Source: an uncultured virus (IMG/VR IMGVR_UViG_3300017782_006724)
Lineage: Duplodnaviria; Heunggongvirae; Uroviricota; Caudoviricetes
IMG/VR virus record: IMGVR_UViG_3300017782_006724
Length of the DNA stretch: 64,000 bases
Reading direction: 5' to 3' (one strand)
The position numbers and the translations under genes were made by a program. Numbering within the stretch: position 1 is the first letter of the stretch; every line of letters starts with the position of its first letter. Below are positions 215 to 8,584 of this stretch, piece after piece. The notes beneath the pieces are model-generated. The model ran no database searches. It saw only the letters and a list, made by a program, of their open reading frames with translations, and was not told the origin of the DNA.

Positions 215-1228
215 ATGAAATCATTTTTTAAAGCGCTGGCAGTAATGTCATTATTTTTATTTTCTACAGCATATGCTGCTCCTGTTAAAGTAGGATTTGT
301 ATATGTTGGACCAGTTGGAGACCATGGTTGGACTTATATGCATGAGCAAGGCCGACTCCAATTAGTTGAAAAATTTGGAGATAAAGTAGAAACAGTATAT
401 ATCGAAAGTGTGCCTGAAGGTCCAGACGCAGCTAGAGTTATTAGAGAAATGGCAAGTAATGGTACAGACATTATCTTTGCTACTTCATTTGGATATATGG
501 AACAAATGGTTAAAGTTGCCAAAGAGTTTCCAAATGTAAAATTTGAACATGCTACAGGATATAAAACTGCAGAAAACCTCTCTGTGTATTCTTCTAAGTT
601 TTATCAAGGTAGATATATTCAAGGAGTAATTGCTGGTCATATGAGTAAATCAGGTAAGGCAGGTTATATAGCCTCGTTTCCTATTCCAGAAGTGATTCGT
701 GGTATTAATGCATTTTATGCAGGTGCTATAACAGTTAATCCGGACTTTGATATTGATGTCGTGTGGGTAAATACTTGGTATGATCCAGGTAAGGAAGCTG
801 CTGCAGCAAAAGTTCTTATGAGTGAAGGCGCTGATATTATTACACAACATACTGATTCGCCATCACCATTACAAGCCGCGGCCAAAGAAGGCATCCTTGG
901 ATTTGGTCAAGCATCAGACATGATTAGATTTGCTCCTGATACTCAGTTGACTGCAATTTTAGATGACTGGGGTCCTTACTATATTGAAAGAGTACAAGCA
1001 ATAATGGATGGTACCTGGAAAACGTCTGATACCTGGGGTGGTATGGATTCTGGTATGGTAGGAATGGCACCATATACGAATATGCCTCCAGAACTTGCCG
1101 AACTTGCATCAACATTACAAATGAAAATTACTTCCGGAGAATTAGATCCATTTGGAGGAAAATTTAACACTGGAGAACTTCTTGGTATGAAAGATTATTT
1201 ACCAGGGATTGATGCAATTAAACCTTAA
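215..1228 (+). CDS. BMP-family (PnrA/Med-like) ABC transporter substrate-binding protein, probably purine nucleoside binding
   Basis: Signal peptide; VGFVYVGPVGDHGW, IFATSFGY, INAF, WYDP and QHTDSP motifs of the BMP family. Confidence 0.9.
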   Translation: MKSFFKALAVMSLFLFSTAYAAPVKVGFVYVGPVGDHGWTYMHEQGRLQLVEKFGDKVETVYIESVPEGPDAARVIREMASNGTDIIFATSFGYMEQMVKVAKEFPNVKFEHATGYKTAENLSVYSSKFYQGRYIQGVIAGHMSKSGKAGYIASFPIPEVIRGINAFYAGAITVNPDFDIDVVWVNTWYDPGKEAAAAKVLMSEGADIITQHTDSPSPLQAAAKEGILGFGQASDMIRFAPDTQLTAILDDWGPYYIERVQAIMDGTWKTSDTWGGMDSGMVGMAPYTNMPPELAELASTLQMKITSGELDPFGGKFNTGELLGMKDYLPGIDAIKP

Positions 1229-3324: not shown

Positions 3325-3821
3325 TTAGCCAAAGGATTATCCAAAGCTCTTTGTAATTTTTTAGTAATACGAGATTCTAAATCCTTTATTTTATCATCAG
3401 TACTATCTTTTAATCGGGATGCCTTATCATCATAATCATTTTGTAAGGCATCTCTTTTGTTTTCAAAACGTTCCTCAGCATTTTGTATAATACTACGTTG
3501 TATCTCTTCTGACTTACGAAGTTTATCCTCCATCCTATCAACTTGTTTTTCAATACCTAATATGTCATCTCTTAAACCAGTTTTAATATCTCGTGTGTAA
3601 TCTATTGCTTGTTCAAGTTTTATATCAAGTTGTTTATTTCTTGCCTCTATTGCATCAGTATCGATAGTTTGAATAATTGCTTTCATATCCATATAATCCT
3701 TGTAGAATTCAAACCCTGCCCAAAGACTACCACCTATAGTAGTTAATGCAGTTAATACAAGAAATATTTTGCCACCTTTAAATTTAATTCCGGCAATTTC
3801 CATTTCTGTTTGTTCAGACAT
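3321..3821 (-). CDS. Membrane-anchored coiled-coil protein
   Basis: N-terminal TM segment then a long heptad-like region ending ALDNPLAN. Confidence 0.7.
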   Translation of the reverse strand: MSEQTEMEIAGIKFKGGKIFLVLTALTTIGGSLWAGFEFYKDYMDMKAIIQTIDTDAIEARNKQLDIKLEQAIDYTRDIKTGLRDDILGIEKQVDRMEDKLRKSEEIQRSIIQNAEERFENKRDALQNDYDDKASRLKDSTDDKIKDLESRITKKLQRALDNPLAN

Positions 3822-5192
3822 TTATCTCTCCCATTGCATGTCTACCATTTTCCTATGTAGTATTTGTTGTGCCAATCCATTTCTTAATCCACGTTGATTT
3901 TCAGGTAATTGATCTGAATTATAACCTTGAGCATCTGGATAGAAACCACCAATTAATTTAGCTCCATATTGATTAAATCCTGGCACAAAATTTAATAAGG
4001 CAAGGACTTGTGCTTGAACTGCCTTTTGTGCTTCAATATTAGCCGCTGCACTCATTTTTTCGGCAAGACTAGAAGTCCTTGTTGCAATTAATTTCTTTAT
4101 CTTTTTTTGTTTTTTATCTGTGTCTTTAATGTCAACTTCCTCGACGATTGTTTCATCTGCTGTAAATTCTTCTGTTTCTGTAATTTCATTTTCAATAACC
4201 TCTATTGGTGTACTGTTAACATCCAACCCAGCAATTGAAATAGGTATTTCATTTAGGTCTCCTAATATAGAATCTACTGTAGCATCTCCAGTAATCTCTG
4301 GTACTGTAATATCTTCTGCATTAACAATTATATCTGGTTCGTTTAAATCTTCGGTATGATGATCTTCCTCAGTTATTGCTAAAATTGTATTTGCATATTC
4401 TGGACAACTTGTGTTATATAATGGGTCCATAGTACATTGTTGTGTAAAATATGCTGCAGCATATCCTGGGCATCCTGTATCATATAAGGCACTTGCCTGA
4501 CATTGTTGATCATAAAGTTGTTGTGCATATGCCTCGGCATACCCAATACAATTTGGATCATGCAAGGGATTATTATAACAAGGATTTGTAGAATAAATTA
4601 AATTAAATTCAGATCGTGAAGGATTAAATTCTGGGCCATACCAACCTGCCCAATTGCCACTATCTTGACCTGTTGCCGTAATATCAATGTTACCAAAAAA
4701 TGATGGTGGTAAAAAATTGTCTGGAAATAATTCCGTGCCAGTATGTTCGGTCCAATTATGAGAATATCCGTAATCATAACTATAACTTTTATATAATGAA
4801 CCATCTGCTTTTAAAATGTCAACAGTTATATCAAATGGATCTATACCAGGCTGATTTGTAAATTCATTGGCATTACCATTTTTTACTCTCCATTTATATG
4901 TAAATCCGTCGACTTGAACACCAGCATTTTGTAGAGCAGTATTAATTGCTATAGAAGTACTTAAAGCTGTTTGTCCATAACTCCAAACAAATCCATCACC
5001 GTTTGGAATTCTATTTGGGTTTGGTCCACCTGAAGTACCACCCCAGTATCCAGTACCATACTGGCCCGACCAATTTTGAGCTGAAGGCTCTAAAAGATTT
5101 GTAGTAGTTTCGGCATTACAGTAAGAGCCAAAGAAGCCCAAGAATACCAGCACCAGCAGCGGCACCTTTAAGTTGATCATTTCGTTTCTCAT
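3822..5192 (-). CDS. Secreted protein with Cys-rich repeats and an acidic linker
   Basis: Signal-like N-terminus; three C..(N/S/D)(P/A)L(H/Y)(D/N)..C.(G/E)YA repeats. Confidence 0.75.
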   Translation of the reverse strand: MRNEMINLKVPLLVLVFLGFFGSYCNAETTTNLLEPSAQNWSGQYGTGYWGGTSGGPNPNRIPNGDGFVWSYGQTALSTSIAINTALQNAGVQVDGFTYKWRVKNGNANEFTNQPGIDPFDITVDILKADGSLYKSYSYDYGYSHNWTEHTGTELFPDNFLPPSFFGNIDITATGQDSGNWAGWYGPEFNPSRSEFNLIYSTNPCYNNPLHDPNCIGYAEAYAQQLYDQQCQASALYDTGCPGYAAAYFTQQCTMDPLYNTSCPEYANTILAITEEDHHTEDLNEPDIIVNAEDITVPEITGDATVDSILGDLNEIPISIAGLDVNSTPIEVIENEITETEEFTADETIVEEVDIKDTDKKQKKIKKLIATRTSSLAEKMSAAANIEAQKAVQAQVLALLNFVPGFNQYGAKLIGGFYPDAQGYNSDQLPENQRGLRNGLAQQILHRKMVDMQWER

Positions 5193-5661: not shown

Positions 5662-6137
5662 CTATTAAACCACATCGCTCCTAAAAAGCCTAAAAATCCT
5701 ATAACTGTGCATAATAGTATAAAAATAGCTATACCATCTCCAACTTGTTGTCTTAGTTTTTGTTGTGCATAGACTTGCTTTTGTCTATCTTTTCTTATCT
5801 GACCTTCCATAGCTAGTAGCTCATCATAGGCCTTTGGGCCATGTGTCATGTTTAGAAAAACCTTGAGTTCATATCTTTGTTCCTCAAGTTTCTTTTTTGC
5901 TGCGTAAGCCTGAAGTGCAGTAGCTTCAATACTTCCTGAACCAAAGAGCTTATCAAACACTCCTGGGTTTTTTGCTTGTTTCTCGGCATTGTCAACATCT
6001 GATACTGCTCCCATCCATCTTGATAGGTCCCCACTCATTTGCTCTAGATCTCTGCCTACGGCAAATCCTTGCTTGATAGCAGAAAAAGCTTTGCCTGCTG
6101 CTCCTACTGCCAGGGATATTGTTACCGGATCTATCAT
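5658..6137 (-). CDS. Membrane protein with C-terminal TM
   Basis: MIDPVT N-terminus, helical body, C-terminal hydrophobic segment; GAGG RBS. Confidence 0.7.
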   Translation of the reverse strand: MIDPVTISLAVGAAGKAFSAIKQGFAVGRDLEQMSGDLSRWMGAVSDVDNAEKQAKNPGVFDKLFGSGSIEATALQAYAAKKKLEEQRYELKVFLNMTHGPKAYDELLAMEGQIRKDRQKQVYAQQKLRQQVGDGIAIFILLCTVIGFLGFLGAMWFNR

Positions 6138-6201
6138 ATTTGCCTCTATTTGTGTTATCTTCTCAAGTCACAAATAAATAACAAAACATTAATTATGTTA
6201 T

Positions 6202-6209
6202 TATTTATA
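6202..6209 (-). promoter_or_regulatory. T4-type late promoter (TATAAATA) for the 6137-3321 operon
   Basis: TATTTATA on the + strand, upstream of the minus-strand operon. Confidence 0.6.
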
Positions 6210-6257
6210 TTTACTTTGCCTTAAACATGTGATATAATATACATTATAATATAAATA
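6210..6257 (+). promoter_or_regulatory. Tandem early (TTTACT-17-TATAAT) and late (TATAAATA) promoters upstream of the tmRNA
   Basis: TTTACT 6210-6215, TATAAT 6233-6238, TATAAATA 6250-6257. Confidence 0.7.
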
Positions 6258-6261
6258 ATAA

Positions 6262-6498
6262 TGGTTTTATGACGTTAGTTGAAATCATACTGGACTCGGG
6301 GGCGGTACCCGACAGCTCCACCAAAAATACTATTATCGAGTATTTCTGACGGGGCTGAAATAGGATCGACAGATGTGGAAGGCTGAAAGAGAACCAAAAT
6401 TGTAAATGCAAACGATAATTTTGCTCCTCAAGATTACGCTCTAGCAGCATAATCGGATAGGGTTTCGGTAGGTTTCCTAGTAACAGAATAACCTACCA
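6262..6498 (+). ncRNA. ssrA: Circularly permuted two-piece tmRNA (alphaproteobacterial type), tag ANDNFAPQDYALAA
   Basis: Acceptor piece ...GGACTCGGGGGCGGTACCCGACAGCTCCACCA (CCA ends 6323) precedes the 5' piece GGGGCTGAAATAGGATCGAC (6351). Acceptor stem has G3.U70. Tag ORF 6408-6452. Outer ends approximate. Confidence 0.93.
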
Positions 6499-6547
6499 CG
6501 TTCATCCTCGGCAGAGGACGGAAGTATGCATAATGCAGAAGGAACGC
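6499..6547 (+). promoter_or_regulatory. Glutamine riboswitch aptamer (glnA RNA motif)
   Basis: P1 CGTTC/GAACG, P2 TCCTC-GGCA-GAGGA, E-loop GGAAGTA...GAAG, P3 TGCA-TAA-TGCA. Confidence 0.8.
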
Positions 6548-6574
6548 ACTTTTACTGTAAAAGGGAGAAGTGTT

Positions 6575-6826
6575 ATGACAAATATAATAGAAACTAAATT
6601 TGGTACTTTAGTTAATACAAAAAAGGTAGCAGCAGGAAGTGCATCTAGTATAAAAAAATCTGGTGCGTTTTATAATTTTTCAATACGAATAACAAATGAT
6701 GATATAAGAGAATACTCATTTACGGATCTTGCAAGAGCTGAATATATGAGAAGAATTATGATTGGTCATTTGGAAGAAAAAATTAAAAAAGAATCAAAGA
6801 GTATTCCTAAAACTACTGTGGCCTAA
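6575..6826 (+). CDS. Hypothetical protein downstream of the glutamine riboswitch
   Basis: GGGAG RBS then ATG 6575; 83 aa, basic. Confidence 0.7.
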   Translation: MTNIIETKFGTLVNTKKVAAGSASSIKKSGAFYNFSIRITNDDIREYSFTDLARAEYMRRIMIGHLEEKIKKESKSIPKTTVA

Positions 6827-6851
6827 AAGATAATTTAATTATGGAGTTAAT

Positions 6852-7283
6852 ATGTATAAAGTGACAGGATATTTTAAAAATGAAAAAGTCGTTCAATATT
6901 TTATTGACAAGTATGATGCTATCGATTTTAGAGATATAGTTGATGCTAATTATCCATTACACGTGACATTTGAAAAAGGAGTTTATCCAATGAAAACGTT
7001 TATTATTAGTAGTTGGAATTCTGTGATGAATTCTAGTTATAATCCCCTACGAAATATTCCACATACGGGTACTCGTCATATGATTATGCAAGTGTTAGCA
7101 TGGATGTGGGTACTTGTTTTTACAATTTCAACTGGTACTTGGGCATATATAGGTTATAATTTTGTTGCTCATTCATTATTACTTGGTGCAATTGTTATTA
7201 CTGTATGTACTTTTGAAGCAGCAAAACGTAAACCACAATACTTTGGTGGATTTGGTAGGGCACAAGGTGGTGAACACGAATAG
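6852..7283 (+). CDS. Membrane protein (NPLRNIP..RHMIMQVLAWMW motif); possible internal start at MKTF
   Basis: Two C-terminal TM segments; GGAG RBS. Confidence 0.7.
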   Translation: MYKVTGYFKNEKVVQYFIDKYDAIDFRDIVDANYPLHVTFEKGVYPMKTFIISSWNSVMNSSYNPLRNIPHTGTRHMIMQVLAWMWVLVFTISTGTWAYIGYNFVAHSLLLGAIVITVCTFEAAKRKPQYFGGFGRAQGGEHE

Positions 7284-7346
7284 TGTGATGACTTAATACA
7301 TCCGCGTGGAGGAACTGTTACCTCCACACCTTTATAGGAGAATAAA

Positions 7347-7565
7347 ATGGCTGAAGAAAAGAAAAATGGAATAGTAAAAAAAGAAGATCATAATGAGTTT
7401 GAACTTGCTATGAGATTCTTTGGTAATGAACTCATTGCAATTAAGTTGGCAGCAACTAATTTCAATGGCAAACTGATAGTATATAGTATATTACTAATGT
7501 TTCTTACATTTATGTTAATGGAAGTCTTTGGTCTTGCTGAACTATTTGGTTATGGAATAGAATAA
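7347..7565 (+). CDS. Small membrane protein
   Basis: AGGAG RBS, C-terminal TM. Confidence 0.65.
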   Translation: MAEEKKNGIVKKEDHNEFELAMRFFGNELIAIKLAATNFNGKLIVYSILLMFLTFMLMEVFGLAELFGYGIE

Positions 7566-7566
7566 T

Positions 7567-8082
7567 TTGACTTTATTAAACATATATACTGCATATTTTA
7601 TTTTAGCCACCATCGGCGCAACAATAGGTTTACATAGATACTGGGCGCATGGTATTGGAAAAAGACGTGTTTGGTTTGAATGGTTATCACTTTCATGTGC
7701 ATTATGTATTGGAGTGTATAAACCACTTGGTTGGATTGGAATACATAGGTTACATCATAAATATCATGACACACCATGGGACCCACATTCTCCAAAACAC
7801 AGAGGAATTTGGAATGTGATATTATCAAGATGGTCAGATCCAGTACCAACTTCTATGATAAAGGACGTCATAAATAATAAGAGAATTAAATTTTTTCAAA
7901 AATATGGAAAGTATTTTATTTGGCTGGTGATAATAATATCTCCATACACTATACTGCTAGGATATGCCGGTATGGGAGTGTTAAACTATTTTGGCCATCA
8001 AAATGGCAAGCCCATAAATAGATGGTTCATAAATATATTTGCACCATTTGAAGGAAATCATTATGACCACCACAAAAGATAA
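7567..8082 (+). CDS. Membrane fatty-acid desaturase (delta-9-like, compact)
   Basis: Three His boxes HRYWAH, HRLHH and HYDHH, plus DPHSP. Confidence 0.85.
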   Translation: MTLLNIYTAYFILATIGATIGLHRYWAHGIGKRRVWFEWLSLSCALCIGVYKPLGWIGIHRLHHKYHDTPWDPHSPKHRGIWNVILSRWSDPVPTSMIKDVINNKRIKFFQKYGKYFIWLVIIISPYTILLGYAGMGVLNYFGHQNGKPINRWFINIFAPFEGNHYDHHKR

Positions 8083-8584
8083 AATACACCATCTTGATAT
8101 GAAAATCAATTACGATATGTTATTGCAAGAATTTCATCAGATGGAATTTAAAAATAATAAATCAGAAAACTGGTGGCGAGCAAAGTCCGAGGAAAGAAGA
8201 CAATTTTGGAAAGAAAGTAAGGCTTGGCAAAAGGCTGTACCATTAGAAATTTATCCTCCGGAAACACAACGGTTAAAGGAATTATTCAAAGCCGATGTTG
8301 TATTACATTATATATTACGGTCAGACTATGAGTTGCCACGGCACCGAGATTGGGAAGTAATTACAGCTGTAAATATAATATTATCTGAAGACAATGCTCC
8401 AATAACATTTGGAAATGACGAAGATGTTTATTATAAATGTGCATTAGTGGATATATCACAAGATCACAGTGTTAAACCATATCCTAATGATAGATACTTA
8501 TTAAAATATTGTTGGAAAGATAAAACATTTGAAGAAGTGAGAAAAGAATTTTATGATAGAAAATTTATACAAAGATGTAAATAA
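8063..8584 (+). CDS. 2OG-Fe(II)/cupin-like dioxygenase
   Basis: HxD (PRHRD) plus distal His (QDHSV) and R..LK. Confidence 0.6.
   Translation: MTTTKDKIHHLDMKINYDMLLQEFHQMEFKNNKSENWWRAKSEERRQFWKESKAWQKAVPLEIYPPETQRLKELFKADVVLHYILRSDYELPRHRDWEVITAVNIILSEDNAPITFGNDEDVYYKCALVDISQDHSVKPYPNDRYLLKYCWKDKTFEEVRKEFYDRKFIQRCK

Follow-up and report, generated by a model that had tools for sequence, protein, structure and literature searches.

A type-1 glutamine (glnA) riboswitch lies directly behind the tmRNA gene in the window, by which we mean the whole 64,000-nucleotide stretch of DNA analysed here, from an uncultured virus of the Caudoviricetes (IMG/VR record IMGVR_UViG_3300017782_006724). Judged from its sequence, the element is a genuine, canonical glutamine riboswitch, and it probably switches the translation of an 83-aa ORF (hereafter ORF83) whose start codon is at position 6575. 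Glutamine-dependent gating of this ORF, which an earlier sequence-only reading of the region had put forward, appears to be the best reading, given a match to the Rfam glutamine family RF01739 and a helix that flanks the SD (Shine–Dalgarno) sequence and is linked to the ATG at 6575. The combination of tmRNA and riboswitch has already been published for related phages; what is added here is comparative support for the expression platform.

The whole window was scanned with cmscan at the Rfam gathering thresholds, and four RNAs were detected, including RF01739, RF01849 and RF04321. The RF01739 (Glutamine) match, at 6497-6550 on the plus strand, had an E value of 3e-10 and a score of 58.2 bits, the cut-off being 35; it spanned the full model (positions 1-53 of 53) and contained no pair flagged as non-canonical. 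Thus the covariance model bore out the proposal of a glnA-type aptamer immediately after the tmRNA, whose terminal hairpin is separated from stem P1 of the aptamer by 1 nt. The sequence and the cmscan alignment showed a three-stem junction in which every pair is standard, made up of P1 (6499-6503/6542-6546), P2 (6505-6509/6514-6518), the conserved junction strand CGGAAGUA (6519-6526) and P3 (6527-6529/6535-6537), the last followed by the conserved strand GAAGGAACG and then CA. P2 and P3 covary over the 75 loci of alignment A1 (described below): among the matches listed, column pair 32-43 was CG in 36 loci, GC in 32 and AU in seven, and column pair 9-22 was UA in 66 and CG in nine. Directly after P1, the conserved C is present in the window as C6547. 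In the solved aptamer the ligand-dependent long-range pair is G23-C60, and C60 is described as the 'linchpin' (Klähn et al. 2018; PMC6212724). C6547 would be the equivalent of this residue, and its long-range pair is predicted here. The aptamer sits in a gene leader together with an expression platform, in which a covarying helix lies around both the SD (6563-6567) and the AUG at 6575.

Two kinds of departure from the single canonical aptamer were seen among the viral loci. A variant before an ORF83 homologue (L124, 2424-2476, plus strand) scored 42.9 bits, above the cut-off; its P1 reads CGUUG/CAACG in place of CGUUC/GAACG, so that the change is compensatory, and its P2 is rebuilt. In five viral loci (L041, L059, L092, L095 and L115) two glutamine aptamers stand in tandem ahead of a small ORF, and both copies at L059 were confirmed by Rfam (53.0 and 55.3 bits).

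For comparison, a pattern for the aptamer core was run over IMG/VR and gave at least 120 loci, 80 of them with 1.5-kb flanks; the loci were thus selected by a strict aptamer pattern in which GCA was fixed. The 120 IMG/VR loci listed, the window and the locus of phage Melnitz form a set of 122 loci. Alignment A1 was built from 75 of the 93 unique single-aptamer leaders among the matches listed, all with the same platform type. The 18 leaders left out (L003, L006, L012, L013, L016, L017, L028, L037, L043, L046, L049, L057, L058, L069, L084, L091, L097 and L117) have other platform types, mostly before YRG-repeat proteins, and include one with a mis-called start.

The window sequence right after the aptamer is GCACUUUUACUGUAAAAGGGAGAAGUGUUAUG. 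On the plus strand, the 5' strand of the platform helix begins at C6547 (6547-6552; A1 columns 54-60), the SD sequence GGGAG (6563-6567) stands 7 nt before the AUG, and the 3' strand of the helix (6567-6572; columns 81-86) comprises the end of the SD and the spacer. RNAfold of 6545-6585 gave a hairpin of -8.7 kcal/mol (z -3.1; one of 200 shuffles as good), in which 6546-6552 pair with 6567-6573, and G6563, G6564 and G6567 of the SD are paired in the ligand-free fold. The conserved part of this hairpin is the outer helix 6547-6552/6567-6572. Pairing around the ribosome-binding site (RBS) had been noticed in the sequence-only reading; its outer SD-flanking helix proved to be real, conserved and covarying, whereas the inner CUUUUAC/GUAAAAG pairing is specific to the window.

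In A1, among the matches listed, column pair 54-86 was CG and column pair 55-85 was AU, each in 74 of the 75 loci, and the pairs further in varied with pairing kept: 56-84 was CG in 61 loci, UG in ten and UA in three, 57-83 was UA in 39, CG in 32 and UG in three, and 59-82 was UG in 42, UA in 24 and CG in seven. For the whole named structure, 92.6% of cells in A1 were paired, compared with 32-52% when the partners were slid by one to three columns. The observed covariation score was reached by none of 500 shuffles, a control that overstates significance, the rows being related. The conserved helix is short (5-6 pairs), and its first two pairs are invariant, partly through the GCA fixed in the search pattern. 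For the 78 unique platforms among the matches listed, whatever their type, the minimum free energy averaged -8.3 kcal/mol compared with -2.9 kcal/mol for shuffles, and in 58 of these 78 listed platforms half or more of the 16 nt that precede the start codon were paired.

The arrangement suggests how the switch may operate. Without glutamine, nucleotides 6547-6552, starting from the linchpin C, would pair with 6567-6572, and an inner pairing of 6555-6556 with 6563-6564 would add to this outer helix, so that the ligand-free hairpin would bury part of the SD and the entire SD-AUG spacer. With glutamine bound, the aptamer would draw C6547 into the long-range pair, the helix would be weakened and the ribosome could load, giving an ON switch. 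We infer glutamine binding and the ON direction by analogy, both being carried over from the cyanobacterial homologues. Klähn et al. (2018; PMC6212724) reported for Synechocystis that glutamine, by way of the type-1 switch, raises IF17 synthesis and that the C equivalent to the linchpin and the next nucleotides can pair with the putative RBS; they postulated that glutamine melts this inhibitory pairing and so turns translation ON, and wrote of the type-1 switch that the way it acts is still unclear. We favour translational ON control because the phage leaders share the design described in that study, here with compensatory changes, and covariation now backs a mechanism that the reference study (PMC6212724) called unclear. 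Transcription attenuation is disfavoured, since no terminator-like site was found in 5900-8300, either between the tmRNA and ORF83 or after ORF83.

It is unlikely, in our estimate, that the same switch acts on the same ORF in the opposite direction, with glutamine turning it OFF, or that it works via mRNA decay rather than ribosome access. The direction in the window rests on analogy, and in the related type-2 glutamine riboswitch the RBS lies within a ligand-stabilised pseudoknot, a precedent that counts for OFF control. However, the helix that buries the SD and the spacer starts with exactly the C which the aptamer requires in its bound state, and bound fold and helix therefore compete; moreover, Klähn et al. 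(2018; PMC6212724) found the type-1 switch of gifB to be ON in vivo.

The gene behind the switch, ORF83 (6575-6826, plus strand), encodes a basic protein (pI 9.8; 15 K+R compared with nine D+E), as had been read from the sequence. A 97-aa form beginning at the ATG at 6533 would have its start codon within the aptamer, and we regard it as an artefact of gene calling. Gene callers lengthen ORF83 to 97-108 aa with starts inside the aptamer, both in the window (6533-6826) and in related proteins (P0001, P0002 and P0005); these added N-termini are probably artefactual and conceal the riboswitch in annotations.

Far from being the orphan phage ORF for which it had been taken, ORF83 belongs to a conserved family. 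A total of 283 database proteins matched it at E <= 0.01, with only generic names among them, and 31 columns are invariant among 24 aligned members. At least 35 ORF83 loci were found in GTDB representative genomes, mostly of the SAR116 cluster and including a complete 2.2-Mb chromosome, and the SAR116 homologues are 82-92% identical to ORF83 (among the matches listed). By pattern, no aptamer was found within 130 nt upstream of any of the 37 genomic copies among the matches listed, and many genomic copies have a TTGAC-type hexamer within that distance. Among 58 viral copies an aptamer was present at seven (six by pattern, and L124 by Rfam); about 50 viral copies stand directly behind another gene, beside virion-protein genes. 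Because all of the 37 listed genomic copies and 51 of the 58 viral ones are without a riboswitch, glutamine control is not intrinsic to ORF83.

The window locus is itself a mosaic. Its aptamer is nearly identical to that of a tmRNA-linked group with 29-aa peptides behind the aptamer (L023, L052, L078 and L103), and its ORF matches those of L123 and L036, where the aptamers are different variants and a tmRNA is absent. This, and the fact that ORF83 is mostly found without a riboswitch, would fit an aptamer that is a carried-over module without regulatory use in this genome, either a structured 5' end left by tmRNA processing or a recombination relic that joined a tmRNA-linked leader to ORF83. 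We regard this as very unlikely: aptamer, linchpin C, helix, SD and AUG are all intact in the window, the window helix is as stable as at other loci, and the same platform has been kept at seven other aptamer-bearing ORF83 loci. Glutamine-gated translation of ORF83 remains the preferred reading of the locus.

No function could be assigned to the protein by homology or fold in the searches made. ORF83 matched no Pfam family at E <= 0.1, its only PHROGs match was marginal (phrog_14733, E 0.0078, no assigned function), and the protein atlas returned unnamed viral clusters only. The AlphaFold model (pLDDT 73.6, pTM 0.55) shows a beta region and a long C-terminal helix. Structure prediction, which the sequence-only reading had recommended, yielded no fold match above noise: Foldseek against the PDB found nothing at E <= 0.001, and the best hits of a wide VIA-align search (Z 5.1; PH-domain-like 1h10_A and 6d7k_H) were within the stated noise. 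A tblastn search of a collection of isolated phages with ORF83 and with the L040 peptide found none. Three candidate identities were rejected. For a DUF4278/IF17-like protein (PF14105), there was neither a Pfam match at E <= 0.1 nor a YRG motif; for a T4 gp33-type late-transcription coactivator, the Melnitz homologue of which lies after ssrA, no BLASTP alignment was obtained at E <= 100; and for kinship of the C-terminal helix with the riboswitch-linked peptides, the hhalign probability was 0.07%. In the loci examined, no nitrogen genes lay beside the cellular ORF83 copies or the SAR116 chromosomal riboswitch cassette. The proposal that ORF83 acts in nitrogen assimilation thus gained no backing from a DUF4278/IF17 signature, from a fold match or from nitrogen genes by the cellular copies.

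This is also where the window departs from the gifB (IF17) leader of Synechocystis (PMC6212724). Both have the same aptamer family, a linchpin C that can pair, with the next nucleotides, to the RBS and, as predicted for the window, an ON switch on translation of a small protein. The gifB product, however, is a DUF4278 glutamine synthetase inactivating factor, and the window leader lies in a phage genome, is fused to a tmRNA and has no evident NtcA-type promoter.

Upstream of the riboswitch lies a two-piece (permuted) alpha-type tmRNA gene (6206-6497, plus strand; RNA body from about 6263), which was matched by RF01849 (6206-6497; 126.6 bits) and RF04321 (6263-6452; 108.8 bits) and reported by ARAGORN as tmRNA*. 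The tag reading frame, ANDNFAPQDYALAA followed by a stop codon, occupies 6408-6452 on the plus strand (ARAGORN coding part 178-222, gene start 6231; codons read from the sequence) and ends in ALAA; with the curated-model matches, this is what a permuted alphaproteobacterial-type tmRNA shows. The coding piece ends in a terminal hairpin on the same strand (6467-6497; arms GGTAGGTT and AACCTACC at 6467-6474/6490-6497), and no T run follows it.

The riboswitch and ORF83 have no promoter of their own in the window. They would be transcribed as the 3' continuation of the two-piece tmRNA, from sigma-70-like and late-type motifs at 6210-6257, and the riboswitch-ORF83 mRNA would presumably be split from the tmRNA by processing. 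The sigma-70-like promoter upstream of the tmRNA (TTTACT-17-TATAAT with a TG extension; 6210-6238, plus strand; 10 of 12 matches in a consensus scan) counts as a motif match only, as 15 such sites were found in the region and 12.2 were expected. The motif TATAAATA (6250-6257, plus strand), which we take to be a T4-type late-promoter core, ends 5 nt before the tmRNA body; in this AT-rich DNA the motif is not enriched in the window (nine found, 14.4 expected), and its position alone suggests a promoter role. A T4-type late-promoter motif was also used by Buchholz et al. (2022; PMC9004378). The junction of tmRNA and aptamer is spanned, with 31 nt or more to either side, by RNA-library contigs (metatranscriptomes) from two studies, namely X17 record 17 (6339-6568, running on into the peptide ORF of a relative) and X20 records 20 and 21; three further contigs (X15 records 3 and 4, and X16 record 11) reach the junction with less than 31 nt on one side and were left uncounted. 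The bridging contigs fit co-transcription of the tmRNA and ORF83 and give it weak support, because RNA libraries can contain DNA and contigs do not represent single transcripts, nor do they define starts, ends or strand, and stretches that they leave uncovered carry no meaning.

The host may be either a SAR11-like or a SAR116-like alphaproteobacterium: the tmRNA is of the alpha type, but three SAR116 genomes have another tag, ANDNYAPVAAAA, in place of ANDNFAPQDYALAA; ORF83 and the membrane domain of the next ORF have homologues in SAR116; and the nearest phage relatives of the window by DNA are Melnitz and pelagiphages.

The comparison set indicates what the switch is attached to. A complete ORF of 26-83 aa stands directly behind the SD at 118 of the 122 loci (among the matches listed), the other four being cut by contig ends. 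In 67 of 121 loci (among the matches listed; 0.64 expected from the flanks), or in 56 of the 103 unique loci among them, the TAAATA core of T4-type late promoters lies upstream of the aptamer, its end 5-9 nt away. A tmRNA abuts the aptamer in ten of the 82 long-flank loci among the matches listed, the window included: ARAGORN found it in eight (the window, L002, L021, L023, L044, L052, L063 and L066), and Rfam added L064 and L078. The length of the linker between tmRNA and aptamer varies by lineage, from about 1 to 10 nt, and at L019 both programs placed the tmRNA downstream of the riboswitch cassette. ARAGORN detected a tmRNA in none of the seven other riboswitch-linked ORF83 loci, nor did Rfam in L123 or L124, the two such loci scanned. 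Since small ORFs and late cores are so much more frequent than tmRNAs at these loci, what recurs is a promoter with aptamer, platform and small ORF behind it; the window has a tmRNA gene after the promoter and ahead of the aptamer. Most likely, then, the riboswitch gates translation of the small protein that follows it and not the tmRNA.

A different assignment was made by Buchholz et al. (2022; PMC9004378), who described the tmRNA and glutamine riboswitch layout in the Methylophilales (OM43) phage Melnitz and also named Pelagibacter phage Mosig and a Prochlorococcus phage. In their wording the tmRNA is 'controlled by' the riboswitch, with a speculation on lysis timing. We confirmed the layout at the Melnitz locus (L002; tmRNA 3685-4102, RF01739 aptamer 4110-4158, 52.8 bits). 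Melnitz and Mosig resemble the window in being of the marine T4-like myophage type and in having an alpha-type permuted tmRNA followed within a few nucleotides, on one strand, by an RF01739 aptamer, and Melnitz shares the platform GCACUU...GGGAGAGUGUUAUGAC; behind its switch, however, is an unannotated 32-aa peptide ORF (L002, 4181-4279) instead of the 83-aa ORF. The same study reported that tmRNA and riboswitch occur together rarely and in isolates only, whereas here they abut in eight metagenomic viral contigs. The sequence-only reading had considered the element notable for a likely alphaproteobacterial phage; a glutamine riboswitch beside a tmRNA had already been published in that study (PMC9004378) for phages that infect marine heterotrophs.

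That the riboswitch controls the tmRNA itself is highly improbable; the precursor's 3' end would then fold in response to glutamine and so set maturation or stability of the tmRNA coding piece. In favour of it, this reading is the published one (PMC9004378), tmRNA and aptamer adjoin each other in the window as they do in nine others of the 82 long-flank loci (among the matches listed), the window linker is 1 nt and the ARAGORN tmRNA span extends into the aptamer. Against it, an aptamer 3' of the tmRNA cannot act on its synthesis, most cassettes have no tmRNA and carry the late-promoter core in its place (67 of 121, among the matches listed), the tmRNA of L019 lies downstream of the cassette, the linker differs in length between lineages and the conserved platform aims at the SD and AUG. 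What the locus contributes is therefore a corrected reading, in which control of the tmRNA is mechanistically unlikely, and the comparative data point instead to putative glutamine-gated translation of whichever small ORF follows the switch.

Among the matches listed, the phage ORFs behind glutamine switches fall into several families. One comprises basic peptides of 28-38 aa with a W-C-[YF]-[KR] start, including the Melnitz ORF; another comprises peptides of 31-35 aa beginning MTYRPFSW; and others are ORFs of 46-55, 50, 64-65 and 78 aa and the YRG-repeat proteins. A Pfam scan of 49 of the 101 unique riboswitch-linked ORFs gave three that pass the DUF4278 (PF14105) cut-off of 25.3 bits (L086, 35.5; L058, 27.9; L046, 26.3) and seven below it. 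At one further locus (L119, 122-274, minus strand), the ORF behind the aptamer has 51 aa and its C-terminal 19 residues match PqqA (PF08042, 41.5 bits, cut-off 21.1); the sequence suggests a PQQ precursor peptide that is joined to a riboswitch-linked peptide or is reached from it by read-through.

The leader was also found in cellular genomes. The aptamer was present in two of three SAR116 genomes tested individually and in 14 of 121 genomes in a sample of the SAR116 order, as a tandem pair in 12 of the 14 (examples are L216, 1358-1611, minus strand; L217, 1366-1612, minus strand; and L229-L233). The RF01739 scores were 50-68 bits in 25 of 26 matches, with one at 37.6 bits. Behind these aptamers come a platform of the phage type and then a 36-40-aa peptide of the MTYRPYQW type, and the flanks are ordinary cellular genes. 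The SAR116 cassettes thus have the same aptamer family as the window and the platform GCACCUAACUUUAA..GGAGGGUG, and their peptide family also occurs behind phage switches (L005, L009, L014, L019, L060, L114 and L120). They differ in being cellular, in usually having two tandem aptamers and a sigma-70-like promoter, and in encoding a peptide instead of ORF83. No description of these cassettes or peptides was found in the literature searched, which held few subscription journals. Klähn et al. (2018; PMC6212724) reported the class to be exclusive to cyanobacteria, and RF01739 is briefly noted for SAR86 MAGs in a paper of 2025.

Thus the same leader with its SD-flanking helix occurs in more than 100 phage contigs, often at a fixed distance from a late-promoter core, and also in SAR116 chromosomes, although the 2018 reference study (PMC6212724) limited the class to cyanobacteria. 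The unstudied small proteins encoded behind it are candidates for a regulatory role linked to nitrogen, both in marine heterotrophs that are abundant and in the phages of these. As a tentative and rather doubtful extension, the cassettes of riboswitch and small basic protein may form a glutamine-responsive module common to SAR116 alphaproteobacteria and marine T4-like phages, usually fired from late promoters in the phages, whose products (ORF83 and the 26-78-aa peptides) would be functional analogues of cyanobacterial IF7/IF17 that inhibit or modulate host glutamine synthetase or another step of nitrogen assimilation. If so, the phage would, in line with the glutamine pool, readjust the nitrogen flow of its host at a late stage of infection. 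Any role given to ORF83 is an inference, as are its co-transcription with the tmRNA and the processing of the transcript.

The genes around the cassette gave some further observations. The sequence-only reading had suggested that the switch might also reach the downstream membrane proteins; the next ORF (6852-7283, plus strand) is provided with a GGAG and an ATG of its own, so that a switch acting on translation would not have to extend to those proteins. The C-terminal half of this ORF is a membrane domain with the motif RHMIMQVLAWMW and has SAR116 homologues, and its DNA also matches Melnitz hypothetical genes (73% identity). A homologue of the membrane half lies at L212 (4661-5032, minus strand), in a MAG of an uncultured Alphaproteobacteria bacterium, about 2 kb from an ORF83 homologue, so that two adjoining window genes have relatives near each other in a cellular genome. 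Further downstream, a 171-aa ORF (7567-8082, plus strand) contains the histidine-box-like motifs HRYWAH, HRLHHKYHD and HYDHH, which resemble those of membrane fatty-acid desaturases; it had no Pfam match at E <= 0.01, and its PHROG match was only to phrog_35201, which has no assigned function. Near the start of the window, the gene at 215-1228 (plus strand), probably an auxiliary gene derived from a host, encodes an ABC-transporter substrate-binding protein that is Bmp/PnrA-like (PF02608, 186 bits) and whose start resembles a signal peptide.
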